Shown here: in pieces, positions 43,034-62,192 of the stretch | Layout: every line of letters starts with the position of its first letter | Numbering within the stretch: position 1 is the stretch's first letter | Assembly: GCA_963850905.1 (NCBI GenBank) | Contig: CAWKMU010000003.1 | Location: 832,001-896,000 of the forward strand | Source of the DNA: an uncultured Gemmatimonadales bacterium | GTDB lineage: Bacteria > Gemmatimonadota > Gemmatimonadetes > Gemmatimonadales > Gemmatimonadaceae | Reading direction: 5' to 3' | Length of the DNA: 64,000 nucleotides | The notes under the pieces: generated by a model | The model's database searches: none | What the model saw: only the letters and a program-made list of their open reading frames with translations | What the model was told of the DNA's origin: nothing | Translations under genes and position numbers: made by a program

Positions 43034-43066
43034 GGGTGGCCTGAAGGCCGCCCCTACATGTCGGCG
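43034..43066 (-). repeat. Family-2 REP downstream of RAYT, inverted relative to the array
   Basis: Reverse complement is cgccgacatGTAGGGGCGGCCTTCAGGCCACCC. Confidence 0.88.
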
Positions 43067-43545
43067 CGCAGTCCATTGTCTGGCGCCAGCCAGCGACGGG
43101 GATTGTTTGCGATGTAGCGCCGACAAGCAGCTAATTCCGTGGCGTTTCGGATTACGCGATCATGGAAACCGCGCTGCCAGAATGGACCAGCCCGGCTCCA
43201 GGCGACGTTGATGCGTTTCGCAGCGAGACCCTTGAATGCGCCAACGACCTGCCCAAGGGTGATCGATTCACCAGCTGTCATCGACAAAATGACGTGAACG
43301 TGGTCCGGCATGATCACATAACGGTCTACCGCGATCGACCAGTGTCGCTCAACGACAATACCCAGCGCCTCGGCCGTGGCCTCACCTGCAGCCGTGAGAT
43401 GAATGGTGCCGCCTTTCACGACGCTCAGCACGTCTGCACGGGTCCGAACAACGGTGGTCACAAGGTACGATCCGTTGCGCGCGTATACCCGGCCCGGCAG
43501 TCGCAGACTGGGATTTCTCGGCCTTCGCAAGAACAATCGCGGCAT
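43054..43545 (-). mobile_element. rayT: REP-associated tyrosine transposase (RAYT, IS200/Y1 HUH superfamily)
   Basis: SLRLPG..Y, YLVT, YVIMPDHVH (HUH), FWQRGFHDRVIRN, YIANNP (catalytic Tyr); flanked by GTAG palindromes. Confidence 0.92.
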
Positions 43546-44064: not shown

Positions 44065-44802
44065 TCAATGCGCGCCCAACGACTCCCGCACCACCCCGTA
44101 CGACGTGCCCCACGCGTCCGTCATCTGGTTGCGGATCTCCCAGAGCTCGGGGAAGAAATAGGTCTTGACGCCCTCGAGCATCCGGTCGACGGGACGACCC
44201 TTGAGCGACTTGGCGCCGAGCCCGATCGTACGGTTGATCAATTGCACGTGACAGTACCGGAATCGCTGGAACAGCTCATCGAATTCCGCAAGCGCCTCGG
44301 CGACGACATAGGCGTCGGAGTGTGAGTACTCGGAGTTGTAGATCTTCTCGACCGTGAGGTCGTGCCGCTCGAGGTAGCTCGTGCGGAACGATTTCCACAG
44401 CTGCGCGGGCATCTTGAGAATCGTCCGGAACCCGGGCGACTCCTGTCCGCTGCCGTTCCCCAGCTGCACACGGATCTCCTGATACTCCTTGGGCGACATC
44501 GTCTCCAGCAGCGACAGCTGCTCCGTCATGAGGCGCAGCGCAATGCGCACCCGGTGCATCAGCGTGAGCACGCGATTCGTGTTCTCCTGCTGCAGGTAGT
44601 CATCGACGTCGAGCAGCGTGTAGCCGATGAGCTTCATCCACAGCTCTTCGACCTGATGCACGATCTGAAACTGCAACTCGTCGCGGTTGCAGAACTCGTG
44701 GAAATCCTTCTGGCACGAGAGCAGTGCCTTGGTGTTGAGGTAGAGCTCGTAGTCGAGCGTCCCCTCGCCATTCATCGTTGCGTAGAACTGCTCGCGGTCC
44801 AC
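44065..44802 (-). CDS. Tryptophan 2,3-dioxygenase superfamily heme enzyme (atypical, possibly MarE-like)
   Basis: DYELYL, DELQFQIVHQVEELWMKL, LETMSPKEY..IR, GSGQESPGFR, RYCH, FFPELW; SLKGR occupies the GTGGS position. Confidence 0.88.
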   Translation of the reverse strand: MDREQFYATMNGEGTLDYELYLNTKALLSCQKDFHEFCNRDELQFQIVHQVEELWMKLIGYTLLDVDDYLQQENTNRVLTLMHRVRIALRLMTEQLSLLETMSPKEYQEIRVQLGNGSGQESPGFRTILKMPAQLWKSFRTSYLERHDLTVEKIYNSEYSHSDAYVVAEALAEFDELFQRFRYCHVQLINRTIGLGAKSLKGRPVDRMLEGVKTYFFPELWEIRNQMTDAWGTSYGVVRESLGAH

Positions 44803-44885
44803 TAGAGCCCCCAGCGCAGGTACGGTGGAAAGTTACTCAACGCCGCGACTGCTCGGTCCAAACACCACGGACTGGCCTACGGCGG

Positions 44886-44909
44886 GTAGGGGCGACGCAT
44901 GCGTCGCCC
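44886..44909 (+). repeat. Family-1 REP
   Basis: GTAGGGGCGACGCATGCGTCGCCC. Confidence 0.85.
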
Positions 44910-44959
44910 GCAATCGCGGCACCGCCCGTCCACGGTCGAGCGCGCCCGCGGCGGCCGCC

Positions 44960-46420
44960 TCAGCGCCCAGTCGCCTCCAAGGGGGCGTCGTTCGCCGTCT
45001 CCGACACGGGGCGGCGGGCGCCCGCGCGCCTGGACCGCACGAGCAGGTACACCAGGCTCACGACTCCCAGCCAGGGAAGGCCCCAGAGAAGCGCTGGACG
45101 CATCCCATCCACGAACCAGGTCGTGATCATGATCGCCACAATGGCCGCGGCCCCCAGGATCGAGGTGTACGGATAACCGATCATGTGCACCGGCAGTCGC
45201 GGACGGCCCAACGCGACCCAGCGCCGGCGGAAGTAGAGATGGGTGATGAAGATCATCAGCCAGACGAACAGTGCACCGAACAGCGCAACGCCAAACAAGA
45301 CGACGTACGCCGTATCGGGGTACCTGAGTGCGACCGCAACGGCGATGATGAGACCGGCGGCCGAGACCAGCAGTGCGACGAGCGGGACGCCTCGCTTGGA
45401 AACGCGGCCCCATGAAGCGGGCGCGAACCCACCGCGAGCGAGTGAGAACAGCATGCGCGAGGTGAGATATAGGTTGCAGTTGATGCTCGATGCAGCAGCC
45501 GTGATCACGACGAAGTTCACCAGGTTCGCCGCCGACGGGATCCCGATGAGGCGGAAGACATTGACGAATGGACTCGCCGTCACGTCGGCGCCCGGCTGGA
45601 TCTCGGTCCACGGGACGATCGCCACGAGTACGAACATCGCGCCCAGATAGAACACGATCAGGCGACCCACAACCTGACGCATCGCCCGCGGCACCGCTCG
45701 CGACGGGTCCTTGGCCTCGCCCGCAGTCACGGCGACGACCTCCGTCCCAATGAAGCTGAAAATGACGAAGACGATCGCGGTCCAGACCGGCGGTCCGCCC
45801 TTCGCGAAAAAGCCCCCGTGTGCCGTGAGGTTCGTGAGGCCAATGGCTGGGCGATGCCCGATCCCCGTGAGCAACGCGAAACCCAGCGCAATGAACAGCA
45901 CGATGGCGACGACCTTGATCATCGAGAGCCAGTACTCGACGCCGCCGAAACTGCCCACACTGCTGGCATTCACAAACAACAGGGCCGCGCCGAACACGGA
46001 CACCCATAACCACTGTGGCGTGTGCGGAAACCACCATTGACAGTAGATAGCGATCGCGACCGCTTCGCCACCAATCGCGATGACCTGACACGCCCAATAC
46101 GTGTAGCGCACCACGAATCCCGCCCACGGATTCACGTACATCTCGGCGTACACGCCAAATGAGCCTGGAGCCGGGTGGGCAACCGCCATCTCCGACAATG
46201 CGCCCATGAACAGCAGTGCGATCACCGCGCCAATCAGGTACGTGATCAGCACGGCTGGCCCTGCCATGTGGACCGCCAGCGAACTGCCGAGGAAAAGGCC
46301 GGTGCCGATCGCCCCACCGATGGCGATCATACTGAGCTGGCCGGTCGTCAGCGCGCGCGACAGCTCCTCGCCGCGCTCGATCGCGTCCGGCGCCCGCGCG
46401 CCGGGCGCCTCCTCAGTCAT
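44960..46420 (-). CDS. Amino acid permease (APC superfamily, AAT family)
   Basis: MIAIGGAIGTGLFLGS, FSFIGTE, GEAKDP, SPFV, SRMLFSLA; start overlaps the cupin stop. Confidence 0.94.
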   Translation of the reverse strand: MTEEAPGARAPDAIERGEELSRALTTGQLSMIAIGGAIGTGLFLGSSLAVHMAGPAVLITYLIGAVIALLFMGALSEMAVAHPAPGSFGVYAEMYVNPWAGFVVRYTYWACQVIAIGGEAVAIAIYCQWWFPHTPQWLWVSVFGAALLFVNASSVGSFGGVEYWLSMIKVVAIVLFIALGFALLTGIGHRPAIGLTNLTAHGGFFAKGGPPVWTAIVFVIFSFIGTEVVAVTAGEAKDPSRAVPRAMRQVVGRLIVFYLGAMFVLVAIVPWTEIQPGADVTASPFVNVFRLIGIPSAANLVNFVVITAAASSINCNLYLTSRMLFSLARGGFAPASWGRVSKRGVPLVALLVSAAGLIIAVAVALRYPDTAYVVLFGVALFGALFVWLMIFITHLYFRRRWVALGRPRLPVHMIGYPYTSILGAAAIVAIMITTWFVDGMRPALLWGLPWLGVVSLVYLLVRSRRAGARRPVSETANDAPLEATGR

Positions 46421-47171
46421 CTTCGTACGCGGCGCCAGGACTACCTGACGGATGAAATACTCCGAGCACGCGGATCGGCGCCGGGCCCGGGTTCTCCAGA
46501 CAGTGCACCACGCCGACGGGGAAATAGATGCTCGAGCCAGCACCGAACTCCGTCACATGCCGCTGACCGCGCAAGTGGAGCATGCCATTGCCCTCGAGGA
46601 TGTAGATCCCTTCCTCATAGGTGTGCCGGTGGAACGGCGCACGACTCTTCGGAATCAACCCGACAAACTGCGTGACCGACTCGCAGCCGACATCGGTGTG
46701 CACCAGATACCGGAACACCCGGTCCTTGCCCGCACGAATCGGCTCACGTTCCTCCGCGCGCACACTACGCTTGGGCGCCTCGCCGGCACGCGGGCTCGTC
46801 CGCGTCTCGCTCACGTGGCGGCCGGAGTCCTCCGGGCAGCACGCGCTCACGAGACGCAATGCGTCCGGACCACGATTCTCGATGTGATAGTCCGTCCCGG
46901 GAGGGACGAACACGCCGACGCCGGGCTCGAGCGCGTAAGCGAATCCGCCGAGGTGACAGGTCCCCGTCCCTTGCACGACGTAGAGCACTTCCTCCGCCCG
47001 GGGATTCACGACTGACGGAGATGTCCCGACCGCGTAGTCGTTGATCATCTGCGTGATCAGCGTCGTTCCGCTCGCCCGACACATCACCGTCCGGGCGGTC
47101 CACGGACCGGCCGACACGACCTCACCATCACCGGGCTCGTAGACTCGACAGCCGCCCGTGAGGACCTTCAT
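46413..47171 (-). CDS. Bicupin protein
   Basis: EEVLYVVQGTG (domain 1); FHRHTYEEGIYILEG...HCLEN (domain 2, full metal motif). Confidence 0.85.
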   Translation of the reverse strand: MKVLTGGCRVYEPGDGEVVSAGPWTARTVMCRASGTTLITQMINDYAVGTSPSVVNPRAEEVLYVVQGTGTCHLGGFAYALEPGVGVFVPPGTDYHIENRGPDALRLVSACCPEDSGRHVSETRTSPRAGEAPKRSVRAEEREPIRAGKDRVFRYLVHTDVGCESVTQFVGLIPKSRAPFHRHTYEEGIYILEGNGMLHLRGQRHVTEFGAGSSIYFPVGVVHCLENPGPAPIRVLGVFHPSGSPGAAYEDD

Positions 47172-48313
47172 GCTCGCACCATCAGGTCGATGTTGTCCTC
47201 GAGCGCCGCCAGCGTGGCGTCGACGTCCGCCGTGTTGTTGTACACATGAAACGCGAAGCGGACCCCGTCATGTCGGGCCGACACGATCACCCCTCGCTCG
47301 GCCAACTTGGCAACCATCGCGCGCGTGTCATGCGAGCGGAGCACGACCAGCGGACCGACCGTGGACGCCGGCGTCTTGCAGTCGATGCCGAGCGCGCGAG
47401 CGCCGTCGAAGAACAACCGGGACAGCCGCTCGACTTGCGCCGCCACGTTCTCCATCCCGATGCGCGTGAGCAGCTCGAGCGCGGGTCGTGCCAGGAAGAT
47501 GTTCGGGATCGATGGCGAGCCGCCCTCGAATCGACGGGCCGTCGAGGCGGGGTCGAGATGCAGCGTGTCGTACGCGAACATGTTCTGCTGCGCCATCCAG
47601 CTCGTCACGGTCGGCGAGAGCGACTCGATGAGTCCCCGCCGCACGTAGAGGAACGCCACCCCCGGTGGACCCAGGAGGTACTTCAAGGTGCCGGTGACGT
47701 AGAAATCTACGTTCGTCGCCTTCACGTCGACCGGCCTCGTGCCGGCGTCCTGGAAATCATCGAGAAAGAGCAGCGCGCCACGGTCGTGCGCGAGCCGTGT
47801 GATCGCGCCCACGTCCGACCGCATGCCATTGATGAACGACACGTGGGCCAGCGGGACGATAGCGGTGCGCTCGTTGATCGCGCGCTCGTAACACTCCGTC
47901 GGCAGCGTGTTGTGGCTGCCCTTGAGGAACTGCACCTTGGCGCCGCGCGGCTGCTGTGCGAGCCAGATCTGCCCCATGGTCGGGAATTCGTACTCACTCA
48001 TCACGACCTGGTCGCGCCCGTTGAATTGCACCGCGGTCGCTATCGGGTTGATCCCGGCCGACGCGCTCGTCACGATCGCCACTTCATCCGGCTCGGCGTT
48101 GATGAACCGCGCGAACAGCCGTCGCAGATCCTCGTACGCCTCGATCCACTCGTCCCAGGGCGCGACCGCCGTCCGCCAACTCGCGGCAAAACGTCGCATG
48201 CCCTCTTCGGACGCATCGGACATCGCTCCCTGCGAGCAGTTGTACAGGTAGGTCTTCTGCCGCAGGATCGGGAAATGTGAACGGACCTCAGCCAATTGGG
48301 TTTCGGTCAGCAC
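47168..48313 (-). CDS. Class V PLP enzyme, kynureninase-like
   Basis: FPIL..TYL, EFPT, DDFQ, GTLKYLLGPPGVAFLYV, ARRFEGGSP; no desulfurase catalytic Cys loop. Confidence 0.85.
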   Translation of the reverse strand: MLTETQLAEVRSHFPILRQKTYLYNCSQGAMSDASEEGMRRFAASWRTAVAPWDEWIEAYEDLRRLFARFINAEPDEVAIVTSASAGINPIATAVQFNGRDQVVMSEYEFPTMGQIWLAQQPRGAKVQFLKGSHNTLPTECYERAINERTAIVPLAHVSFINGMRSDVGAITRLAHDRGALLFLDDFQDAGTRPVDVKATNVDFYVTGTLKYLLGPPGVAFLYVRRGLIESLSPTVTSWMAQQNMFAYDTLHLDPASTARRFEGGSPSIPNIFLARPALELLTRIGMENVAAQVERLSRLFFDGARALGIDCKTPASTVGPLVVLRSHDTRAMVAKLAERGVIVSARHDGVRFAFHVYNNTADVDATLAALEDNIDLMVRA

Positions 48314-48316
48314 GGC

Positions 48317-48449
48317 AGGGATAGGGGGTTAGGGGTTAGAAGTAGGGACAACAAAACGCGTGGGTGGACGTTACGAGCCGTGAGGGCCGAGGACAACGTC
48401 CCTGCCTCTGTTCTTCTCCCAAAGCCCTGGTCCCTAACCGCTGGTCCCG
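48317..48449. repeat. Degenerate heptamer-arm inverted repeat between divergent genes
   Basis: agggata-gggggtt-aggggtt ... ccctggt-ccctaac-cgctggt. Confidence 0.6.
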
Positions 48450-48471
48450 GCAGTTCGTACCTTCCGCCACC

Positions 48472-49959
48472 ATGCCAATGCTCTCCAGAACGGTTCGCCG
48501 ACTGGTGGGATGCGCCCTGGTCGCGGGGGTCGCGCCTCGCGGCGCCGCCGCGCAAGGACTCTCGCCCGACGTCCGCAAATTCGTCCGTGTCGACACACCG
48601 ATCGTCGTGCTGACGCATGTCCGGGTCATCGATGGGACCGGGGCACCGGCCCGCGACGATGAGACCCTGGTGCTCACACGCGGATCCATCACCGCAGTGG
48701 GCCCGGCGGGGTTGGCGACACCGGCCGGCGCGCAGGTGCTCGACCTGCGGGGTTACTCCGTCATCCCCGGCCTCGTGGGGATGCACGACCACATGTTCTA
48801 CACGCACTCGCTGGACCGCGACAGCCTGGGACGATCCGCGCCGCCCGGCCAGACGGCGGCGGAGCAGGCCTTCTCCTTTCCGCGCCTCTATCTCGCGGCC
48901 GGTGTGACGACGATTCGCACGACGGGCAGCATGGAACCGTACATGGACCTCAACCTGAAAACGCAGATCGATGACGGTCGCGCGCCAGGGCCGACCATGT
49001 ACATCTCGTCCCCATACCTCGAAGGGAAGGGAACGCAGTTCCCGCAGATGCACGAGCTCACGGGGCCTGAGGACGCACGGAAGATGGTCGACTTCTGGGC
49101 CGACGCCGGCGCGACCTCTTTCAAGGCATATATGCATATCACGCGGGGGGACCTCGGCGCCGCGATCGCCGAGGCCCACCGGCGTGGCATCAAGGTCACG
49201 GGCCACCTGTGCTCCGTCGGATGGCGTGAGGCCATGGCCCTTGGCATCGATGACTTCGAGCACGGTCCCGTCGGCACGGACGCCGAGTTCGTGCCGGGCA
49301 AACAGCCCGACACCTGCCCCGGGGGAGCCGCGATTTTCGGCAGCTGGCTCAACACCGACGTGCCCGGTCCGAGAGCCGATTCCCTGATTCACGATCTCGT
49401 CGCGCGTCACGTGGCCGTCACGTCCACATTGCCGGTGTTCGAGCTCACCGTGCCCGATCGCCCGCCGCTCCAGCGCCGCGTACTCGATGCGATGTCCGCC
49501 GAGTCGCGCCTCAGCTACCTGACCATGCGAGCGCGCGGCACGCCGCCATGGAACGGTCGCCCCCTCCCGTGGGCGAGCCTCCTCGCGAAAGAGGAGGCGT
49601 TCGAGCTCGCCTTTGTGAAGGCCGGCGGCCTGCTCCTCGCCGGGCCGGATCCCACGGGCATCGGCGGTGTGCTCGCCGGCTACGGCGACCAGCGCGAGGT
49701 CGAGCTCCTGGTCGAGGCGGGGTTTACGCCCCTTGAAGCGATTCGGATTGCGACCGCCAACGGCGCCCAGTTCCTCGGCCAGGCCGACCACTTCGGCACG
49801 ATCGCACCCGGGAAACAGGCAGACCTCGTGGTGATCCGAGGCGACCCATCGACCCACATCGCCGACATCGAGAACGTGGACATCGTGTTCAAGGGAGGCG
49901 TCGGGTATGACTCGGGCAAATTGATCGAGGCGGTGAGGGGGGTCGTCGGAATACGTTGA
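48472..49959 (+). CDS. Secreted metal-dependent amidohydrolase
   Basis: Signal peptide; PGLVGMHDH, GVTTIRT, GHLC, EHG, GTIAPGKQADLVV. Confidence 0.9.
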   Translation: MPMLSRTVRRLVGCALVAGVAPRGAAAQGLSPDVRKFVRVDTPIVVLTHVRVIDGTGAPARDDETLVLTRGSITAVGPAGLATPAGAQVLDLRGYSVIPGLVGMHDHMFYTHSLDRDSLGRSAPPGQTAAEQAFSFPRLYLAAGVTTIRTTGSMEPYMDLNLKTQIDDGRAPGPTMYISSPYLEGKGTQFPQMHELTGPEDARKMVDFWADAGATSFKAYMHITRGDLGAAIAEAHRRGIKVTGHLCSVGWREAMALGIDDFEHGPVGTDAEFVPGKQPDTCPGGAAIFGSWLNTDVPGPRADSLIHDLVARHVAVTSTLPVFELTVPDRPPLQRRVLDAMSAESRLSYLTMRARGTPPWNGRPLPWASLLAKEEAFELAFVKAGGLLLAGPDPTGIGGVLAGYGDQREVELLVEAGFTPLEAIRIATANGAQFLGQADHFGTIAPGKQADLVVIRGDPSTHIADIENVDIVFKGGVGYDSGKLIEAVRGVVGIR

Positions 49960-49988
49960 CGGACGTGCCTCGCGCGGGCGGTGACCGT

Positions 49989-50012
49989 GGGCGACGCATG
50001 CGTGGCCCCTAC
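49989..50012 (-). repeat. Family-1 REP (minus orientation)
   Basis: gggcgacgcatgcgtggcccCTAC. Confidence 0.8.
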
Positions 50013-50137
50013 CCGCCTGGGCCAGTGCGTCGTAGTCTCCTTTCTCCTTTCTGTACTTCTCCTTTCTTGAGCGCCTTAGCGCCCGCCCCCTGATCCCTGA
50101 TCCCGCCCCTTCAGGTTCAACCCCAATCCCTACCACC

Positions 50138-50920
50138 GTGCCAGACCTACTCACCCAATTCGCAACTGCGATTGCGAGCGGCGCGATCCGCGTCATCGAT
50201 CTCACGCAGCCGCTGGACCCCACGACACCGGTCATCCAATTGCCACCGGACTTCGGGAAGAGCTGGCCGTTCGAGATCGAAGAGATCTCGAAGTACGATA
50301 GCCGCGGACCGGCCTGGTACTGGAACAACTTCTCGTGCGGCGAGCACACCGGCACGCATTTCGACGCGCCAATCCACTGGGTCACCGGGAAGGACTACCC
50401 GAGCAACGCCACCGACTCGATCCCAGCCGAGAAGTTCGTCGCCCCTGCCTGCGTGGTGGATGTGTCGAAGGAAGTCGCCAAGAATGCCGATTTTCTGCTC
50501 ACGATTCAGCACATCGAGGGATGGGAGAAGACACACGGTCGCATCGAGGCCGGATCGTGGGTGCTGATGCGCACCGACTGGTCGAAGCGACGCGATCCAT
50601 CAGCATTTCTCAACATGAAAGAGGACGGTGCCCACGTACCGGGCCCGCACCCCGACCTCGTCCCTTTCCTCGCGCGTGAGCGCAACGTCATCGGCTGGGG
50701 CTCCGAGGGCGTCGGGACTGACGCCGGCCAGGCTTTCACGTTCAATCCGCCGTTCCCCTGTCACAGCATCATGCATGGCAGCAACAAGTTCGGGCTGGCC
50801 AGCCTCACGAACCTCGACAAACTGCCGCCGAAAGGCGCGATTCTGATCACGCCACCGCTCAAGATCGTTCGCGGCTCCGGGAGCCCGTGCCGGGTCCTGG
50901 CACTGGTTGGGCAGGCGTGA
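50138..50920 (+). CDS. Cyclase family amidohydrolase, isatin-hydrolase-like
   Basis: GEHTGTHFDAP (HxGTHxDxP); IQLPPDFG, WYWNNF, HWVTGKD, GTDAGQA and FGLASL recall isatin hydrolases rather than KynB (recognised from memory). Confidence 0.85.
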   Translation: MPDLLTQFATAIASGAIRVIDLTQPLDPTTPVIQLPPDFGKSWPFEIEEISKYDSRGPAWYWNNFSCGEHTGTHFDAPIHWVTGKDYPSNATDSIPAEKFVAPACVVDVSKEVAKNADFLLTIQHIEGWEKTHGRIEAGSWVLMRTDWSKRRDPSAFLNMKEDGAHVPGPHPDLVPFLARERNVIGWGSEGVGTDAGQAFTFNPPFPCHSIMHGSNKFGLASLTNLDKLPPKGAILITPPLKIVRGSGSPCRVLALVGQA

Positions 50921-50923
50921 GGG

Positions 50924-51080
50924 GGGTGACGGGTGACGGGTGACGGGTGACGGGTGACGGGTGACGGTGACGGGGAAAACGCGACGTGCACTGGCTTGTC
51001 AACCGAGCTCTACAATTACCTTCGCCTCACGATATGTTGTCGTTCCCGTCACCCGTCGCCCGTTTGCCTTTATCCGTCGC
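50924..51080. repeat. (GGGTGAC)6 tandem with a downstream inverted arm
   Basis: Six perfect units at 50924-50965; cccgtca-cccgtcg-cccgt at 51045-51063. Confidence 0.88.
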
Positions 51081-51166
51081 CCACACCTCTCGCCGCTCAG
51101 TCCCGGGACTTACTAATTAGGTAGGCCCAAACCCGCTCTCGTCCTTCCCTTTAGCCCCTCGCCACC

Positions 51167-53337
51167 ATGGCCGAGCGGTCCTTTACGAAGGAAGTCCAGA
51201 AGCTGTACCTCGGCGAGGGCGAGACCTTCCGCGGCGAGGGCATTCTCGCGGTCACCAAGGCGCTGCTCCAGTCCGGCGTGTCATACGTGGCCGGCTATCA
51301 GGGCGCGCCGATCTCGCACCTCATGGACGTCCTCACCGACGCCAACGACATCCTCGAGGAGTTGGGGGTGCATTTCGAGCACAGCGCCTCGGAGGCGACA
51401 GCGGCAGCCACACTCGCGGCGTCGGTCAACTATCCCCTGCGCGGCGCCGTCACCTTCAAGTCGACGGTGGGTACCAACGTCGCCTCTGATGCGCTTGCGA
51501 ACCTGGCGTCGGGTGGCGTCACCGGCGGGGCGCTCATCATCGTCGGCGAGGATTACGGCGACGGCTCGAGCATCATGCAGGAGCGCTCCCACGCGTTCGC
51601 GATGAAGTCGCAGATGTGGCTGCTCGATCCGCGGCCGAATCTGCCCTGATCGTGCGGGCGGTTGAAGAAGGATTCGCCCTGTCCGAGGCAACCAACACAC
51701 CGGTCATGCTCGAGCTCCGCATCCGGGCGTGCCATGTGCACGGCCAGTTCGCCGCCAAGAACAACGTCCGGCCCACCTTCACGCTCAAGGATGCCATCGA
51801 GCATCCAGTTCGCGATGTCACGCGCATCGTGTTGCCACCTGCGAGCTTTCTCCACGAGCAGGAGAAGATCCGCACGCGCTGGCCTGCGGCGCAGCAGTTC
51901 ATCCAGGATCATGCGCTCAACGAGTTCTTCGCGGCCGACGCCCGTGACTTCGGCATCATGTTGCAGGGCGGGATGTACAACGCGACCATCCGGTCGCTGG
52001 AGTTGCTCGGTCTCTCCGACGCGTTCGGCGACTCCAGGATCCCGCTGTACGTCCTGAACGTCACCTATCCGCTCGTCGAGGCTGAAGTCCAGCGGTTCTG
52101 CGCCGGTAAGCGCGGGGTGCTGGTGATCGAAGAGGGACAGCCCGACTTCATCGAGCAGAACTTGCACGCCATCCTGCGGAAGGCGGGGATGGACACGACG
52201 TTGCACGGCAAGGACATGCTGCCGATGGCGGGCGAGTACACCGGCGCCACGGTTACCAAGGGCGTCTTCGCGTTCGTGGACCGGTACGCGCCAAACCTGC
52301 TCGATCGCGCGAAGCTGCCATCCATCGTTCGCCCCGCCCCAGCCCCCACGCCTGCGCCGGGCGCCGCCACTCTGAACGTCGGGGCACAGGTGCATGCCCG
52401 CCCGCCGTCGTTCTGTACGGGGTGCCCTGAGCGACCGATTTTCGCTGCGATGAAGCTCGTGGAGCGCGAGATTGGCCAGCACCATGTCAGCTGCGACATC
52501 GGATGCCACCTGTTCTCGATTCTGCCGCCGTTCAACATCGGCGCGACGACAATGGGGTACGGACTGGGCTGGGCCGGGGCCGCCGCCCTCAACACCAAGA
52601 CGACCAATCGCCGCACGCTCGCCGTGATGGGCGACGGGGGGTTCTGGCACAATGGGCTCACGAGCGGCGTTGGCAATGCCGTCTTCAATCAGAGCGACAA
52701 TGTTTTGATCGTCGTCGACAACACCTACACCGCCGCCACCGGCGGGCAGGACATCCTGTCCTCGGCCGCCACGAATCCCATTCGCACGACACGGCTGTCG
52801 ATCGCCGATGCCGTGCGCGGCGTGGGAGTCAAGTGGGTCCGCACGATCACGAACACCTACGACGTCGCGAAGATGCGCGACACCCTGCGAGAGGCGCTCA
52901 CGACCAAGGAGCGCGGGCCGAAGGTGATCGTCGCGCAAAGCGAGTGCATGCTGAACAAGCAGCGCCGCGTCAAGCCACAGCTCGCGAAAGCAGCGCAAGA
53001 GGGCGTACGCGTCGTGCGCGAGCGATTCGGCGTCGACCCGGATACCTGCACCGGTGACCACTCGTGCATCCGGCTCTCCGGCTGTCCGTCGCTGACGGTC
53101 GCGCCCAACCCCGACCCGCTCCGCCAGGACCCGGTCGCGACGGTGATCGACAGCTGCGTCGGCTGTGGTCTGTGTGGAGAGGTCGCGCACGCCGCAGTCC
53201 TCTGCCCGTCGTTCTATCGCACCGACATCATTTCCAACCCGAGCCTCTGGGAACGCTTCGCGGGCCGTGTCAGACAGGCCGTGATTCGCATCCTGCAGCG
53301 TCGCATCGACCGCCGTTTGGCGGGGGTTTTCGGATGA
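51167..53337 (+). CDS. iorA: Indolepyruvate:ferredoxin oxidoreductase-family alpha subunit (1-nt frameshift near 51647)
   Basis: GYQGAPIS, RPPSFCTGCPER, DIGC, GDGGFWHNG..VDN (TPP motif), CTGDHSC..GCP and CVGCGLC Fe-S motifs; restoring one base gives LPSIVRAV. Confidence 0.9.
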
Positions 53338-53464
53338 CGGTTAGTAGCAAAATCAGTGGGCGACCGACGTAGTGGTTGCCCAGGCCTCCGTAACCATTAG
53401 AACCGCCTCTACCCTAACCCCTGTAGTTACGTCTCCTCTCTCCTCTCAGGAGTCCTCCTCTCTC

Positions 53465-54996
53465 GTGGCCGCTCCGCCTCAGGCGGAGCGGCCACGCGCC
53501 ACCACGGTCGCCATTCTCGCAATGGGAGGCGAAGGGGGTGGCGTGTTGGCGGATTGGATCGTGGATGTCGCCGAGCATGCCGGCTACTACGCGCAGACGA
53601 CGTCGGTCCCCGGTGTCGCCCAGCGCACCGGTGCGACGATTTACTACCTGGAGATCTTCCCCGAGGCGGCGGTCGCAAAAGCCGGCCGGCCGCCTGTACT
53701 GTCGCTCATGCCCGTGCCGGGCGAGGTCGACGTCGTCATCGCATCCGAGCTCATGGAGGCCGGCCGCGCCGTGCAACGCGGACTCGTGACCTCTGATCGC
53801 ACGACGCTGATCGCGTCGACCAATCGCGTCTACTCGATGACCGAGCGCACCGCGATGGCAGACGGCCGCGTCGACAGCGCAGCGCTCATCGAGGCGGGGG
53901 CGGCAGCCGCGAAGCGATTCGTACAAGGTGACTTCGCGCAGATCGCGGAAGAGACGCGGAGTGTCATCAGCGCGGCGCTGTTCGGCGCCCTGGCCGCGAC
54001 CAACGTGCTGCCCTTCTCGCGCGAGCAGTACGAGGAGGGGATTCGCCGTGGCGGAGTCGGGGTGACCGCCAGTCTGGCGGCTTTCGGGGCAGGGTTCGCC
54101 ATGGCCTCACAGACCACTGCGCAGCCGGCAGTGACTGCTCCAGCACCCGCGACCACCGCCGAGCCGCCTGTCGGGCCGCGGCTGTATTCGCTGGCGTCTC
54201 GTTTACAACGAGGCTTCCCCGAGGCAGCGCACGACATTCTGTTCGCCGGCATCACGCGACTTGCCGATTATCAGGATGTCCGGTATGCCACGCAGTACCT
54301 CGACCGCCTCGAGCCGATCCGCGAGGTCGACGCACATCGGAATGGGGAATGTGCGCTGCTGCGCGAGACGGGACGCCACCTGGCGCTCTGGATGGCCTAC
54401 GAGGACGCGATTCGCGTCGCGGACCTGAAGATTCGGCGGAGCCGATTCGAGCGCGTCGAGCGTGAGTCTCGAGCGAGGCCCGCCCAGCTGGTACGCATCA
54501 ACGACTTTCTTCATCCGCGCATCGAGGAGATGAGCGACATTCTGCCGGCAGGCATCGGTCGATGGCTGCTTCGCTCGCGCTGGGCAGGAGCCGTAATCGA
54601 TCGATTGACGCGCCGCGGCAAGGTCGTACCTACCACGTCGCTGCACGGGTACCTCCAGCTCTACGCGATCGCCAGCTTGCGACCGGGTCGCCGGCGATCC
54701 TTGCGGTTCGGTCGCGAGCAGGTCGCGATCGACGCGTGGCTCGCGCAGGTGCCCGCGCTGGCGGAACGAGAGTACGAGCTCGCACTCGCCGTCGCCGCAT
54801 GCCCGCGGCTACTCAAGGGCTACGGCGACACACATGCGCGCGGCCTGAAGAATTTTGATGCGGTGATGGCCGCCGTACCCGCGCTACGAGGCCGCACGGA
54901 TGCGGCGTCGCGCCTCCGCGCCCTGCAGGACGCCGCTCTCGCGGACGACACGGGAGAGAGGCTGGCCAAGGCGCTGTGCGACGTCCCGCCGGGCAC

Positions 54997-55000
<4 letters not shown>
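53465..55000 (+). CDS. iorB: Indolepyruvate oxidoreductase beta-subunit family protein (long form)
   Basis: AGGAG RBS; AMGGEGGGV, SVPGVAQRTGAT, LADYQD, WMAYED, KGYGDT. Confidence 0.88.
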
Positions 55001-57282
<2,282 letters not shown>

Positions 57283-57286
<4 letters not shown>

Positions 57287-58080
57287 CAGCGCCCACGAGC
57301 AGTCCACCAGGAGGGCTGGAGGGGAAACACGCGATCGTGACCGGCGGCGGGCGTGGTATTGGCGCGGCCATCACGCGCGCACTGTCGACACACGGCGCGC
57401 GTGTGACGATCGTCGGCCGAGATGAGAGCGCGCTGCGAACGGCGATCCAGTCGCTGGGAGATCCACGGCGCCTGCATGCGGTGCCGGGCGATGTGACGGA
57501 TGCCGAGGTGCTCGCGCGCGCCTTCGACCAGGCGCGAGCCCGATTCGGGCCGATTCAGATCCTGGTCAATAACGCCGGGCAGGCCGGTTCGGCGCCCATT
57601 CGCAAAACGGATCTCGCGCTGTGGCGCCGGCTCATGGCTGTGAACCTCGACGGCGCCTTCCACGCAACTCTGGCGGTCGTGGCCGAAATGACCGCGGCCG
57701 GGTGGGGACGCATCGTGAACATCGCAAGCACCGCTGGACTCGTCGGCTATCGCTACGTGTCGGCCTACTGTGCATCCAAGCACGGCCTGGTCGGCCTCAC
57801 ACGAGCCCTCGGTGTCGAGCTGGCCACCACAGGCGTGACGGTCAACGCGGTCTGTCCCGGCTTTACGGAGACCGATATGCTGACGGACGCGGTCACCGCG
57901 ATCGTCACGAAAACTGGCCGCACGCGGGAGCAAGCCATGGCCGATCTGTTGGCGCACAACCCCCAGCAACGACCCATTCGTCCCGACGAAGTCGCCAACG
58001 CGGTCGTCTGGCTCTGTCTCCCCGGGAGCGAAGCAGTCACCGGCCAAGCGATCGCTGTCTCTGGCGGTGAAATGACATGA
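57283..58080 (+). CDS. SDR / 3-hydroxyacyl-CoA dehydrogenase-like
   Basis: [21 protein letters not shown] overlap with the upstream gene. Confidence 0.92.
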
Positions 58081-58111
58081 GCAACCAATCTCCAAGCCCA
58101 CCAACCGTCCC

Positions 58112-58969
58112 ATGACCCGCTTCCTGCCAGGGGAACCCCACTCGCTACCCGGCAACCGCACAACGCTCGCTGAATATCAGAGCCGGCACTTTCGTTACAG
58201 CGTCAGCAACGCCGTGGCCACGATTACGCTCGACCGACCACAGCGCAAGAATCCGCTGACGTTCGATTCGTACGCGGAATTGCGAGACCTGTTCCGCGCG
58301 ATGCCGTATGCGGAAGACGTCCGAGCGATCGTGATCGCGGGGTCGGGCGAGAACTTCTGCTCCGGCGGCGATGTACATGAGATCATCGGCCCGTTGACGA
58401 AGCTCGACATGCCAGGCCTGCTCGCGTTCACGCGGATGACGGGCGATCTCGTCAAGGCGATGCGGGGAGCGCCGCAGCCCATCGTCGCCGCGATCAATGG
58501 CGTGTGCGCAGGCGCCGGAGCGATCCTGGCGCTCGCGTCCGACCTGCGCTTCGGCACCGCGCGCAGCCAGACCGCGTTCCTGTTTACGCGCGTCGGACTT
58601 GCTGGGTGTGACATGGGGGCGTGCGCGCTGCTGCCCCGTCTCATTGGCTCCGGGCGCGCGGCGGAGCTGCTGTATACCGGTCGCAGCATGAGCGGCACCG
58701 AAGCCGAGCGATGGGGATTTGTGAATCGGCTGTGCGAGCCCGCAAGCCTGCTCGGTGAAGCGCATGCCATCGCCGCGGAACTGGCGGCCGGCCCCACCTT
58801 CGCCCACGCGATGACCAAGCGCATGCTGCACCACGAGTGGAGCATGAGCATCGACGATGCGATCGACGCCGAGGCGCAGGCACAGGCCATTTGCATGGCC
58901 ACGAACGATTTTCACCGCGCCTATCACGCGTTTGTGGCGAAGCAGAAGCCGGTATTCGAGGGAAACTGA
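58112..58969 (+). CDS. Enoyl-CoA hydratase/isomerase family protein
   Basis: [37 protein letters not shown]. Confidence 0.93.
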
Positions 58970-58972
58970 ATC

Positions 58973-60157
58973 ATGCACGGCCGAGAGCATCTCGAGTGGC
59001 CATTCTTCGAGCCGCACCACCGGGCATTCGCCGAGCGACTCGACGAATGGGCGCGCGCCCATGCCGACCCGGCGCGGCCGGCGGACATCGATGCGGCATG
59101 CCGCTCGTTGGTCCATCGCCTCGGTGAAGCCGGGTGGCTCAAACACACCGTTGGCGGGACGGCTTATGGTGGCGTGGCCGACCGAATCGATACGCGCACC
59201 GTGTCCCTCGCGCGCGAAACGCTCGCCTGGTATTCGGGGCTCGCCGATTTTGCATTCGCCATGCAGGGCCTCGGGTCCGGCGCGATCACCCTGTTTGGCA
59301 CCGACGCGCAGCGGGAGCGGTATCTCCCGGGCGTGGCGAGCGGGACCACGATTCCGGCGTTTGCGCTGTCCGAGCCGCAGGCCGGCTCCGACGTCGCTGC
59401 ACTGGAGTGCCGAGCGCGACGCGTGGGCGACGAGTACGTGCTCGACGGCGAAAAGACGTGGATCTCGAACGGAGGCATCGCGGACATCTACGTCGTGTTC
59501 GCCCGAACGGGTGAGGCGCCGGGCGCCAAGGGCATTTCTGCATTCGTGATCGACGCGGAGACGCCGGGCTTCACATGCGCCGAACGGATCGAAGTGATGG
59601 CACCGCACCCGCTGGCACGCCTGACGTTTACGGAATGTCGGATCCCGGCGACGCAGCTGTTGGGTGAAGCCGGGCGCGGGTTCGCGATTGCCATGGCCAC
59701 ACTCGACGTGTTCCGCATCTCGGTCGCCGCGGCAGCGCTCGGCTTTGCCCGCCGGGCGCTGCACGAGGCGCTCCAGCGCGCGACGTCGCGCCGGATGTTC
59801 GGCCAGACGTTGGGCGACTTCCAATTGACACAGGGCAAGGTGTCCGCGATGGTAACGGGCATCGACGCCGCCGCGCTCCTCACCTATCGCGCTGCGTGGC
59901 TCCGCGATCGAGGGCAGCGCGTCACCGTGGAAGCCGCGATGGCGAAATTGACCGCCACGGAGACCGCGCAGCAGGTGATCGACGCGGCGGTGCAGATGTG
60001 TGGCGCGTTGGGTGTCATGAGCGAGGAGCCTGTGGAACGATTGTACCGTGAAATTCGTCCGTTGCGCATTTATGAGGGCGCAAGTGAGGTACAGCAGTTG
60101 ATCATCGGGCGTGGCGTCCTGCAAGCGTATCGAGACCACGAGGCCGCGAGTGGCTGA
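58973..60157 (+). CDS. Acyl-CoA dehydrogenase
   Basis: [30 protein letters not shown]. Confidence 0.95.
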
Positions 60158-60608
60158 GGCGCGAACGGCGCGGAAGCGATCGAGCGCTGGACAGGTCTAC
60201 CGATCGGACATCCGGATTCGGTTCGCGCACTGCGATCCCGCGGGCATCGTGTTCTTTCCGCGGTATCTGGTGATGTTCAACGACCTCGTTGAGGACTGGT
60301 GTCGCGACGAGCTCGGATTCACGTTCGCCGACATCCATACGGGGCGTGGGTGGGGACTGCCGACCGTCCGCCTGGAGGTCGATTATCTGGCACCCAGCCG
60401 GATCGGTGACCAGCTCACCGCGCATCTCAGCGTCCGCGCGATCGGCACCAGCTCGCTTCGCCTGGCGATCGTGCTCCGTGGGCCCAACGATCAAGACCGC
60501 GTCCGCGCCGAGATGGTGGTGGTGCTGACCGATCCGGGCTCCATGCGGGCCACACCGATCCCTGACGACCTGCGCAAACGCATCGCGCCGTTTCATGCGG
60601 CCGACTGA
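60150..60608 (+). CDS. Acyl-CoA thioesterase (4-HBT / hot-dog fold)
   Basis: [17 protein letters not shown]. Confidence 0.9.
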
Positions 60609-61077
60609 CCCCCGATCAGCGGCGCCGGCAGGCGGTCGGTCTGACCCAGCGCCGAGCGGGCGCGACCAGCGGCCGGCTCGCGAGTTGCTGCATCCACCCG
60701 GATGGCCGCGGCCCAAGGGCTATGCCTACGGCGTCGTCGCAGAAGGTCGGGTCGTGTGCCTGAGCGGCATCATCGGGTGGGACGCGCAGGGCCGCCTCGT
60801 CGGTGACGACCTGGTGTCGCAGACGCGCCAGGCGCTCACCACCATCGCGTCCCTCGTTCGCGAGGCGGGCGGGGCGCCGAGCGACATCGTCCGCATGACC
60901 TGGTACGTCGTCGACAAACGGGAATATCTCGCCGCGCAGGAACCCCTGGGCGCCGCGTATCGAGACATCATCGGCCGGCATTTCCCGGCGATGACCGTCG
61001 TCGAGGTCGCGGGACTCCTCGAGGACCGCGCGCGCGTCGAGATCGAGGCGACCGCCATCCTGGGGGGAACGAGTTGA
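60595..61077 (+). CDS. RidA/YjgF family protein
   Basis: PPGWPRPKGYAYG, DIVRMTWYV, FPAMT, VEIEATA. Confidence 0.9.
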   Translation: MRPTDPRSAAPAGGRSDPAPSGRDQRPARELLHPPGWPRPKGYAYGVVAEGRVVCLSGIIGWDAQGRLVGDDLVSQTRQALTTIASLVREAGGAPSDIVRMTWYVVDKREYLAAQEPLGAAYRDIIGRHFPAMTVVEVAGLLEDRARVEIEATAILGGTS

Positions 61078-61454
61078 ATACCGATATCGTGCAGCGCCTG
61101 ATCGACGCGTACAACGCCATGGACGCGGACGCCTTGCGCCCGCTGCTCGACGCGGAGGCGAAGCACTCAGCGCCGGGATCGGATTTTGGGGCCGACCTCG
61201 TTGGGTCGCAGAAGATCATCGAGTACTTTCGCACCGGAGTCTTCCCCGCATTTCACTCGGTCCGGTTCGAGGTCGTGCACATGTACGAAGACCAGCGGCA
61301 GGGGGCCGTCGTGGTGGAGTGGCGCAGCCACCTCGAGCCCAAGAGCGGCCGGAACTACAGCAACACCGGCGTCTTCGTCATCGACCTCGCGGGCGGGAAG
61401 ATCGTGTGGGTGCGCGAGTATTTCGATACCGAGAAGTCTCACGCCAACGTGTGA
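61074..61454 (+). CDS. NTF2/SnoaL-like protein
   Basis: TTG start overlapping the upstream stop; IDAYNAMD..L, GKIVWVREYFD. Confidence 0.85.
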   Translation: MNTDIVQRLIDAYNAMDADALRPLLDAEAKHSAPGSDFGADLVGSQKIIEYFRTGVFPAFHSVRFEVVHMYEDQRQGAVVVEWRSHLEPKSGRNYSNTGVFVIDLAGGKIVWVREYFDTEKSHANV

Positions 61455-61466
61455 TCGCTAGGCCGA

Positions 61467-62192
61467 ATGCCGACTGACCTCAAGAATCGGACGGCCATCG
61501 TCACGGGCGCGGCCCGCGGCCTCGGCCTCGTGATCGCCGAAGATCTCGCGCGCGAAGGCATGCGCGTCGCGGGCGTCGACATCCGGAGCGAGGAATTGGT
61601 GCGCGCCATGGCGGATATCGCGCAACGGCACAGCGTCGAAACGCTCGCGTTCCCAGCGGATGTCGGCGACGAGAAGTCGGTCAAGCACGTGATCGGCGAG
61701 GTACGGCGCCGGTGGGATCGGATCGACGTGCTCGTGAATAACGCGGGCATCCGGCAGATCGCGCCCGTGTGGGACGCGTCGACCGAGCTCTGGGACCGCG
61801 TGCACAACACGAACCTCAAGGGGCCGTTCTTGTTCACGCGCGAGGTGCTCGCGCAGGACATGCGCGCACGCGGCGAGGGCGTGATCATTTTCATTTCGTC
61901 CGGGTCGGGGAAGAAGGGCGAGGAAGACAGCTCGGCCTACTGCGCGTCGAAGTGGGGACTCCTGGGATTCTCCGAGTCCGTCGCCAAGGACCTCAAGAAG
62001 ACGCGCATTCGTGTGACCGCGTTGACGCCCGGCATGATTCTCACGCCCATGGCCGAAGAATCCGAGGTCTGGCATCTCGGACTCGACTGGTTGGATCCCG
62101 CGCCCGTCTCTCAGGCCGTCGTGTTCTGCATCAAGCAAGATCCGGACACGATCATACCCGAGCTGCGCATATATCATAGGGCGCAGGTATAG
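61467..62192 (+). CDS. SDR family oxidoreductase
   Basis: TGAARGLG, NNAG, YCASK. Confidence 0.9.
   Translation: MPTDLKNRTAIVTGAARGLGLVIAEDLAREGMRVAGVDIRSEELVRAMADIAQRHSVETLAFPADVGDEKSVKHVIGEVRRRWDRIDVLVNNAGIRQIAPVWDASTELWDRVHNTNLKGPFLFTREVLAQDMRARGEGVIIFISSGSGKKGEEDSSAYCASKWGLLGFSESVAKDLKKTRIRVTALTPGMILTPMAEESEVWHLGLDWLDPAPVSQAVVFCIKQDPDTIIPELRIYHRAQV

Follow-up and report, generated by a model that had tools for sequence, protein, structure and literature searches.

A candidate route from tryptophan through isatin to 2-aminobenzoyl-CoA encoded in a soil bacterial gene cluster

Bacterial tryptophan catabolism is taught as proceeding by kynurenine, tryptophanase or indolepyruvate routes. A gene cluster of about 18 kb (positions 44065–62192) from a soil bacterium raises the question of whether a further route exists. 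The cluster lies in a 64,000-nucleotide stretch of the genome of an uncultured Gemmatimonadales bacterium (GenBank assembly GCA_963850905.1, contig CAWKMU010000003.1, positions 832,001–896,000), hereafter the window, and encodes a haem protein of the tryptophan 2,3-dioxygenase (TDO) family, a cyclase and a pyridoxal 5'-phosphate (PLP) enzyme. These represent the same three superfamilies as KynA, KynB and KynU, and alanine plus an ortho-aminoaryl product would be expected here as in the kynurenine pathway; however, each window protein falls short of the equivalog models of its counterpart, and the order of steps that we propose is reversed, with side-chain cleavage first and lactam hydrolysis second.

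Judging from the sequences, we consider the chances about even that the cluster encodes a single pathway for breaking down an aromatic amino acid taken up from outside, most probably L-tryptophan, via isatin to 2-aminobenzoyl-CoA. The amino acid would be supplied by a secreted peptidase of the amidohydrolase type together with an APC permease. The short haem oxygenase would then oxygenate the indole at C2, and possibly at C3, leaving the ring unopened and yielding oxindolylalanine or 3-hydroxy-oxindolylalanine, as its loop motif and experiments on the haem oxygenase MarE suggest; where a bicupin is present, it may add or speed C3 hydroxylation as an optional contributor. Retro-aldol cleavage of the C-beta–C-gamma bond by the class-V PLP enzyme would give isatin and alanine. 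Isatin hydrolase (IH), identified from sequence and motifs, would open isatin to isatinate (2-aminophenylglyoxylate), and the 2-oxoacid:ferredoxin oxidoreductase IorAB may decarboxylate isatinate oxidatively to 2-aminobenzoyl-CoA, a step suggested by gene linkage and a phenylglyoxylate precedent. Because IorAB would deliver the CoA ester directly, a CoA ligase would not be needed. An enzyme of the AbmA family is predicted to hydroxylate and reduce the ring of this ester, and a beta-oxidation-like block with a RidA-family protein to complete the degradation.

The sequence comparisons argue strongly for the downstream half, moderately for a MarE-like oxygenase and weakly for the PLP lyase and cupin steps. 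A preliminary description of the locus had put forward a route from tryptophan through isatin to 2-aminobenzoyl-CoA; what stands of it is the identity of the isatin hydrolase, the linkage of IH, IorAB and AbmA without a ligase, and the SLxGR-type loop of the oxygenase, while the upstream half stays conjectural. The broader proposition, that soil Acidobacteriota-type bacteria have an aerobic tryptophan route that cuts the side chain before opening the pyrrole ring, by way of a new PLP-dependent C–C lyase and an isatinate:ferredoxin oxidoreductase, we advance only tentatively and at somewhat less than even chances. Where we searched the literature, in which subscription journals were thinly covered, neither a tryptophan-to-isatin route nor a catabolic cluster for oxindolylalanine was described.

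If the proposal is true, the oxindolylalanine/isatin route would be a fourth bacterial route of tryptophan catabolism and a biological source of isatin in soils. It would give MarE-type 2-oxindole-forming haem oxygenases a physiological role, the first in primary catabolism, and would assign a function to IadA/IadB of plant-microbiome auxin degraders. The cluster is built from known superfamilies, and its enzymes would add two or three activities to those known, among them a dioxindolylalanine lyase and an isatinate:ferredoxin oxidoreductase.

Isatin hydrolase and its downstream partners

The preliminary description had noted that the cyclase looks like an isatin hydrolase, and the comparison bears this out. 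The protein matches four solved isatin hydrolases over its full length (5NMP, E 2e-107; 5NNB/5NNA, 5e-101; 4J0N, 2e-94) and is about 65% identical to the best of them, by visual estimate on the alignment. The metal motif HxG[T/A]HxDxPxH together with GLAS or GLQC constitutes the isatin hydrolase signature (PMC6117287). The window cyclase carries HTGTHFDAPIH, which fits the metal motif, and GLAS. A conserved Glu forms the second Zn site of KynB (PMC6117287); every verified KynB enzyme has Glu at this position, where the cyclase has an Ala, within GLAS. Against NCBIfam, arylformamidase models included, it matched zero families at E ≤ 1e-5. The metal motif recurs in 80/80 related IH loci, and GLAS in L001–L027, the closest genome loci with IH at least 79% identical. 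Identification of the cyclase as a Mn-dependent isatin hydrolase rather than a KynB is well supported by these sequence features.

To see what accompanies isatin hydrolase, we compared the genes within 10 kb to either side of IH relatives at 80 genome loci; the set takes in Variovorax, Achromobacter and Bordetella. IorAB was the most constant neighbour, the C-terminal part of iorA being present at 55 of the 80 loci and iorB at 53. At 20 of the 80 loci abmA was present and was followed by genes for a short-chain dehydrogenase/reductase (SDR), an enoyl-CoA hydratase (ECH) and an acyl-CoA dehydrogenase (ACAD), in the order SDR-ECH-ACAD, extended in some cases by a thioesterase (TE) and RidA. The RidA-family protein may deaminate an enamine product of the AbmA reaction. 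A RidA-family gene was also seen trailing the abm block where no PLP gene is nearby (L031, L042, L047 and L049).

In this assembly iorA occupies two frames, with a one-base shift near 51648. The same-genus genome G278, whose proteins are 92–99% identical, has the whole cluster in synteny and both iorA parts in one frame, as do the related loci at which both parts were found. A soil-metagenome contig of 499 bases (run X1, depth 5.3) carries a single additional C after 51648, which restores the frame. The frameshift is private to this assembly and reflects either a lesion of very recent date or an error of assembly; we treat iorA as functional in the population. The two iorA pieces score 63 and 217 bits against TIGR03336, below its equivalog cut-off of 650.9, with TPP_enzyme_N and TPP_enzyme_C domains and Cys-rich motifs visible, and iorB exceeds the NF006179 cut-off of 348 bits; we assign the pair to the indolepyruvate:ferredoxin oxidoreductase family. 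The AbmA-type protein exceeds the NF006101 cut-off of 1078 bits and combines FAD_binding_3 (FAD monooxygenase) and Oxidored_FMN (OYE) domains, which places it in the AbmA/SdgC family with 2-aminobenzoyl-CoA as its presumed substrate.

The absence of an aminobenzoate-CoA ligase, also remarked on in the preliminary description, extends beyond the cluster. Pfam and NCBIfam scans gave no AMP-binding ligase in the cluster or in positions 1–44 kb of the window. In the organism's own genome (4.49 Mb, 82% complete), no member of the benzoate-CoA-ligase family scored above the TIGR02262 cut-off of 375; the best, outside the cluster, reached 296 bits, and generic acyl-CoA synthetases are encoded elsewhere. 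The abm pathway of Azoarcus/Aromatoleum evansii, to which a review (PMC6221969) refers, is an aerobic hybrid 2-aminobenzoyl-CoA route that starts with a 2-aminobenzoate-CoA ligase. The window cluster resembles it in having an AbmA-type monooxygenase/reductase followed by beta-oxidation-like genes, and differs in having no 2-aminobenzoate-CoA ligase gene, IorAB being proposed as the source of the CoA ester instead.

For the IorAB step itself there is a precedent in PadEFGHI, which converts phenylglyoxylate to benzoyl-CoA (PMC5109826) and so resembles the proposed enzyme in oxidatively decarboxylating an aryl-glyoxylate to an aroyl-CoA; PadEFGHI has five subunits and acts in anaerobic phenylalanine metabolism, whereas the window IorAB has two and its isatinate activity is a prediction. 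Apart from unconnected mentions in one review, the literature searched, thin for subscription journals, held nothing joining isatin hydrolase or isatinate to IorAB or to 2-aminobenzoyl-CoA. Among the downstream steps, that of IorAB alone is purely inferred. Conversion of isatin through isatinate to 2-aminobenzoyl-CoA and on into the Abm pathway is, in our assessment, probable.

A second point of comparison is provided by the iad loci of Variovorax, Achromobacter and Bradyrhizobium (PMC9613470, PMC12633357), which share an IH orthologue, IadI (61–64% identical), and likewise have adjacent IorA/IorB-like proteins. In Variovorax-type loci these proteins, IadA/IadB, belong to COG4231/COG1014, and isatin and isatinic acid were detected as intermediates (PMC9613470). 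In a 2025 preprint, C8H7NO2 precedes the IadI step, and N-formylanthranilate is ruled out as the identity of C8H7NO3 (PMC12633357). Unlike the iad loci, the window cluster lacks both the Rieske oxygenase IadCDE and a MarR regulator, and it has the AbmA block attached. Its entry substrate is apparently an amino acid, to go by the permease, PLP and TDO-family genes, whereas the iad substrate is indole-3-acetic acid, and the reported iad end product is free anthranilate, unlike the CoA ester proposed here. The linkage of IH, IorAB and AbmA offers a testable answer both to the onward fate of isatinate and to the role of iadA/iadB.

The oxygenase, the PLP enzyme and accessory proteins

The TDO-like protein passes the PF03301 cut-off of 34.9 bits, but its 118.5 bits against TIGR03036 fall below the cut-off of 390.7. 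Its His49, His185, Tyr107 and Arg111 align with His55, His240, Tyr113 and Arg117 of the TDO of Xanthomonas campestris (XcTDO); these are the distal and proximal histidines and the Tyr/Arg pair that binds the substrate carboxylate, all of which it has kept. In place of the XcTDO loop GTGGS, whose absence the preliminary description had pointed out, it has SLKGR, and it is about 50 residues shorter. The features of canonical KynA, namely the equivalog score, the GTGGS loop and a PASG-type loop, are all missing.

These differences mark a lineage rather than a single protein. In an alignment of 28 sequences, all 19 full-length orthologues from our loci (66–98% identical) had SLKGR and [N/Q/H]GSGQES, whereas the four canonical TDOs from the sample of the window's own phylum all had GTGGS, ASGFQS and an insert of about 50 residues. 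Among the best 120 database matches, SLKGR was found in 120 and GTGGS in none. A second clade of short TDO-like proteins, 35–38% identical (L126–L128, L136, L137), has GTMGT in four members and SLKGV in one.

A loop of this type is also found in MarE of maremycin biosynthesis, which has SLGGR and DATG where TDO has GTGGS and PASG, the DATG Asp pairing with the loop Arg (PMC11904535). When the loop is exchanged, the relative extent of mono- and dioxygenation changes (PMC12312684). SLKGR keeps the S, L, G and R of the MarE loop, with K for the first G. The AF2 model of the TDO-like protein (pLDDT 78.9) had MarE (9CA3) as its top Foldseek match, with TM 0.73 versus 0.66–0.68 for XcTDO, at 19% identity in the structural alignment. 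The window protein is like MarE (PMC11904535, PMC12312684) in its TDO fold, S-L-x-G-R loop and His/Arg/His equivalents; it is unlike it in context, MarE being biosynthetic and acting on beta-methyl-tryptophan, and the window protein belonging to a catabolic setting with L-tryptophan as presumed substrate. That the TDO-like protein represents a separate clade of the TDO/HDAO superfamily, a tryptophan-binding haem oxygenase whose loop predicts a non-canonical outcome, is moderately supported by these comparisons.

We considered whether it might be no more than the Acidobacteria form of KynA, and rejected this: about 87 of 401 sampled genomes give partial TDO matches, and in the four inspected the match was of the kind with GTGGS and the insert. 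Within the window's own phylum sample, the TDO-like gene occurs in only 3 of 401 genomes, all of one genus.

Some features of the surroundings of TDO-like genes were recorded alongside. The SLKGR-type gene and one for a small flavin reductase (PF01613) are often arranged convergently, as at L122, L123 and L125 and at 18/80 of the loci L146–L225; such a reductase could keep the haem ferrous. In genome G445 the stand-alone TDO-like gene adjoins a DDE transposase (L135:7459-8778). Members of the second short clade in L126–L128 have conserved PhzF-like, response-regulator and ABC ATPase genes as neighbours.

The PLP enzyme had been described as kynureninase-type, a label that did not survive comparison with family models and folds. 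It scores 80.9 bits against the kynureninase model TIGR01814 (cut-off 246.4) and 130 bits against SufS, both below the respective cut-offs, and matches PhnW and BhcA transaminase models weakly. Its fold is of the SufS/CsdA kind; among the Foldseek matches listed, to rank 50, there was no kynureninase, and the kynureninase 1QZ9 is a distant match by sequence (E 2.7e-21). A HHCAQP-containing loop in the SufS-type structure 8D8S, which presumably carries the desulfurase catalytic Cys, aligns to a gap in the window protein. Look-up in the ESM Atlas gave generic 'class V aminotransferase' clusters only. By sequence and model, the enzyme appears to represent an uncharacterised family of 381-residue proteins that qualifies neither as kynureninase nor as cysteine desulfurase.

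SufS, CsdA, kynureninase, aspartate beta-decarboxylase and UstD share a ketimine/enamine that ends as, or starts from, alanine, and kynureninase has been reported to cleave gamma-hydroxy analogues by retro-aldol chemistry. Given these two properties, cleavage of 3-hydroxy-oxindolylalanine to isatin and alanine would by analogy be chemically reasonable, and the window enzyme is a weakly supported candidate for an alanine-forming C-beta–C-gamma lyase.

The remaining proteins are peripheral to the argument. The C-terminal domain of the bicupin has a full metal site and its N-terminal domain a degenerate one (motifs HRHTYEEG...G and GSSIYFPVGVVHCLEN), and its matches in the PDB are weak only. The preliminary description had made the cupin a step of the route; the bicupin occurs at 3 of the 80 IH loci and at none of the TDO-centred genome loci compared, and since it is missing from most related clusters we regard it as an optional member rather than an obligatory step. 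The permease gave its best NCBIfam matches to GABA, Phe, AroP and ProY permeases, all below cut-offs. The amidohydrolase has a signal-peptide-like N-terminus, with the M at codon 37 as its likely start; in the PDB, the Arg carboxypeptidase Cc2672 is closest to it (3MTW, E 1e-27).

Genes related to that of the PLP enzyme also occur in genomes that lack IH, and 20 loci were fetched around PLP orthologues from such IH-negative genomes. Their neighbours other than permeases include an outer-membrane protein, a second class-V enzyme (PF00266) and a BBE-type oxidase. At 10 of the 20 loci the second class-V enzyme lies just upstream of the PLP–permease pair (for example, L119:11491-12798, L120:7292-8599 and L228:6217-7578); in L119 and L120 it exceeds the cut-off of TIGR01976, the 'VC1184-type cysteine desulfurase-like' model, and GntR/FCD regulators and TonB-type outer-membrane proteins are found near it. 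The BBE-type FAD oxidase stands beside the PLP gene at 7/20 loci (for example, L231:9155-10564), directly downstream on the same strand at five.

Linkage of the modules and competing explanations

Whether the oxygenase and PLP genes belong with isatin hydrolase can be judged from their arrangement elsewhere, since the cluster gene set recurs, in variable order, in other genomes and contigs. The PLP gene, or PLP and permease genes, immediately precede IH in the same orientation at L002, L004, L014, L016 and L027/L113; at L002, L004 and L016 they form PLP(-cupin)-permease-IH arrays on one strand with short gaps, and L113 has the row TDO-like-PLP-IH-iorA-iorB. The genomes that carry 30 of the 32 closest IH loci number 30. 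A TDO-like orthologue of at least 72% identity was present in 14 of them, and in nine of those 14 (G401, G402, G403, G407, G408, G410, G411, G412 and G421) it was near IH or abm genes on the same contig, as it likewise was in G278 and G343. The metagenome contig L163 carries the full cluster set. Labels of the metagenome-assembled genomes (MAGs) with cluster-bearing loci include Gemmatimonadaceae, Terriglobia and Acidiferrales. The preliminary description had called for a neighbourhood analysis of SLxGR-type TDO genes with IH, ior and abm genes, and would have dropped its route had the two blocks never occurred together; they do co-occur in several genomes, although TDO-like genes are mostly found apart from IH.

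The same question was put to 171 genomes of one Acidobacteriota family, a sample with many incomplete MAGs and with counts uncorrected for relatedness. IH was called at E ≤ 1e-60 and the PLP orthologue at 51% identity or more, and the tallies include the unpublished genomes G832, G838, G850, G862, G967 and G968. The TDO-like gene was found in 72 genomes, IH in 27, the PLP orthologue in 39 and a kynureninase above cut-off in 4. The 27 IH genomes comprise 7 with an IH of the clade at least 79% identical to that of the window (G838 among them) and 20 with one of a 55–59% clade. All 7 genomes of the former have the TDO-like gene as well as the PLP orthologue, and the TDO-like gene occurs in 0/20 of the latter. 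Of the 39 genomes with the PLP orthologue, 35 also hold the TDO-like gene (crude odds ratio about 22, again uncorrected for relatedness). This suggests that the oxygenase on the one hand and the PLP–permease pair on the other are widespread upstream modules producing alanine together with an aromatic by-product, and that an optional downstream module salvages the by-product. Such a nested pattern fits the proposed order of steps and the adjacency of PLP and IH genes, yet shared ancestry in a few genera could produce it, and we give it little weight.

Several observations weigh against the proposed route. IH is missing in 65 of the 72 family-sample genomes with the TDO-like gene, and the 6.8-Mb genome G445 has the TDO-like gene without IH. 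A permease orthologue adjoins the PLP gene at about 8 of the 20 IH-negative loci, in pairs that are 52–57% identical. In a set of 80 TDO-centred metagenome loci (L146–L225), with flanks as available, any cluster gene was found at 7, in one case as a weak amidohydrolase match, and of the 7 loci whose flanks extend 10 kb in either direction, only one had a cluster gene. The usual neighbours across the 80 were genes for GT2 glycosyltransferase (22), flavin reductase (18), luciferase-like protein (12), FAA-hydrolase (12) and YdjC (11). As the TDO-like gene and the PLP–permease pair thus occur mostly apart from IH, the upstream half via (di)oxindolylalanine has to be inferred. The proteins themselves add further points. 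In sequence comparison the TDO-like protein scores 86 bits with XcTDO but 23 bits with MarE, and it has NGSG at the place of the MarE DATG; moreover, MarE dioxygenates in the absence of ascorbate (PMC12312684), so the loop alone does not fix the product. The AF2 model of the PLP enzyme (pLDDT 83.7) had SufS/CsdA as its top Foldseek matches, at TM 0.81–0.87. Lastly, in Variovorax nine iad genes without iadA/iadB were enough for anthranilate (PMC12633357), from which it follows that isatinate can be processed without IorAB.

The scattered distribution of the upstream genes invites the explanation that the locus merely juxtaposes separate modules, with IH, IorAB and the Abm block degrading isatin from elsewhere (indole, auxin breakdown or abiotic oxidation of tryptophan) and the TDO-like gene and PLP–permease pair serving an unrelated amino-acid pathway. 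The iad loci, where IH and IorAB occur with neither the TDO-like gene nor the PLP–permease pair, agree with this, and the IS200-like gene beside the cluster may be a sign of rearrangement. It is harder to reconcile with the same-strand, short-gap arrays and the L113 row, with the presence of both other modules in all seven family-sample genomes that have cluster-type IH, or with the recurrence of the arrangement, in differing gene orders, in MAGs carrying the three labels given above, and we judge it unlikely while allowing it some weight. A kynurenine pathway in disguise would have the TDO-like protein make N-formylkynurenine, the cyclase or the amidohydrolase deformylate it and the PLP enzyme act as kynureninase, with anthranilate entering the Abm pathway through a ligase encoded elsewhere. 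Membership of all three proteins in the KynA, KynB and KynU superfamilies speaks for this, as do the conserved haem ligand and tryptophan-binding residues, the presence of just one PF03301 gene and one cyclase gene in the organism's own genome, and the generic acyl-CoA synthetases. It has to contend with a cyclase about 65% identical to characterised isatin hydrolases, with Ala for the KynB Glu and no arylformamidase match, with a PLP enzyme at 81 bits against a 246-bit kynureninase cut-off, and with the replacement of GTGGS; it also leaves IorAB without a role despite its constancy beside IH. No kynureninase above cut-off was found in the own genome, where a kynureninase-like protein elsewhere reaches 151 bits, below cut-off, and similar sub-cut-off proteins occur in genomes with and without the TDO-like gene. 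The identity of IH and this shortage of kynurenine genes make an ordinary kynurenine pathway quite unlikely.

Two further schemes retain parts of the proposed route and change the role of the PLP enzyme. In one, the haem enzyme would form oxindolylalanine, the PLP enzyme would release 2-oxindole, pyruvate and ammonia by tryptophanase-like beta-elimination, and the bicupin or other oxidases would produce isatin. The MarE-type loop, which favours a 2-oxindole product, the full metal site of the cupin and the RidA-family gene are all compatible with this. Yet most clusters lack the cupin and there is no other oxidase that recurs throughout, the RidA gene travels with the abm block even at the four loci without a PLP gene (L031, L042, L047, L049), and the SufS/CsdA-like fold points, on what is generally known of such enzymes, to alanine-forming chemistry; we give this scheme a low probability. 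The other takes the class-V enzyme for a kynurenine transaminase whose product IorAB would convert to 2-aminobenzoylacetyl-CoA, thiolysis then giving 2-aminobenzoyl-CoA. This would account for the missing ligase and supply IorAB with a 2-oxoacid, and some class-V enzymes do transaminate, in keeping with the weak PhnW and BhcA matches. However, no thiolase gene was found in the cluster, the identity of IH would go unexplained, the PLP enzyme resembles SufS/CsdA more closely than it does AGT-type transaminases, and the 2-oxoacid formed from kynurenine cyclises readily to kynurenate. We regard it as very improbable.

Gene layout and minor observations

Genes of the window were called from an open reading frame (ORF) listing and from Pfam and NCBIfam scans (Table 1), which agree with the gene order and positions that the preliminary description had given for both blocks. 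All the genes it listed are where it placed them; it had overlooked the amidohydrolase gene between the blocks, the frameshift in iorA and the IS200-like gene. The minus-strand block is transcribed in the order PLP enzyme, bicupin, permease and TDO-family gene. Positions 1–44 kb of the window hold unrelated genes.

Table 1 Features of the cluster and its left edge, with window coordinates
Feature	Position	Strand	Evidence or remark
IS200-like Y1 transposase gene	43054-43545	minus	left cluster edge
TDO-family haem protein, 245 residues	44065-44802	minus	PF03301, 95.6 bits
APC amino-acid permease	44960-46543 (ORF); probable true start about 46400	minus	PF00324, 348 bits, match from residue 70
Bicupin	46413-47171	minus	Cupin_2, 93 bits; 4-base overlap with PLP gene
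PLP enzyme, class-V (fold-type I), 381 residues	47168-48313	minus	PF00266, 148 bits
Amidohydrolase-superfamily protein, peptidase-like, predicted secreted, 531 codons	48364-49959	plus	between both blocks; Amidohydro_1 match
Isatin hydrolase (predicted; cyclase fold, GLAS type)	50138-50920	plus	solved isatin hydrolases and motifs
Tandem 7-mer repeat GGGTGAC, about 6-7 copies	50925-50975		spacer between IH and iorA
iorA-type TPP/2x[4Fe-4S] subunit of 2-oxoacid:ferredoxin oxidoreductase	51167-53337	plus	TIGR03336 on two pieces
iorB-type subunit (POR gamma-like domain and DUF6537)	53372-55000	plus	NF006179, 690.7 bits
AbmA/SdgC-type bifunctional aroyl-CoA 5-monooxygenase/reductase	55016-57286	plus	NF006101, 1244.6 bits
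Beta-oxidation-like block	57160-62192	plus	SDR, enoyl-CoA hydratase (PRK08258), ACAD, 4HBT thioesterase, RidA-family, SnoaL/NTF2-like, second SDR
RidA-family gene	60595-61077	plus	within beta-oxidation-like block

At the GGGTGAC repeat in the IH–iorA spacer, metagenome contigs pile up, with a word depth of 12–30 versus 2–5 nearby, and break off with loose ends, which indicates that the repeat is present at many places.

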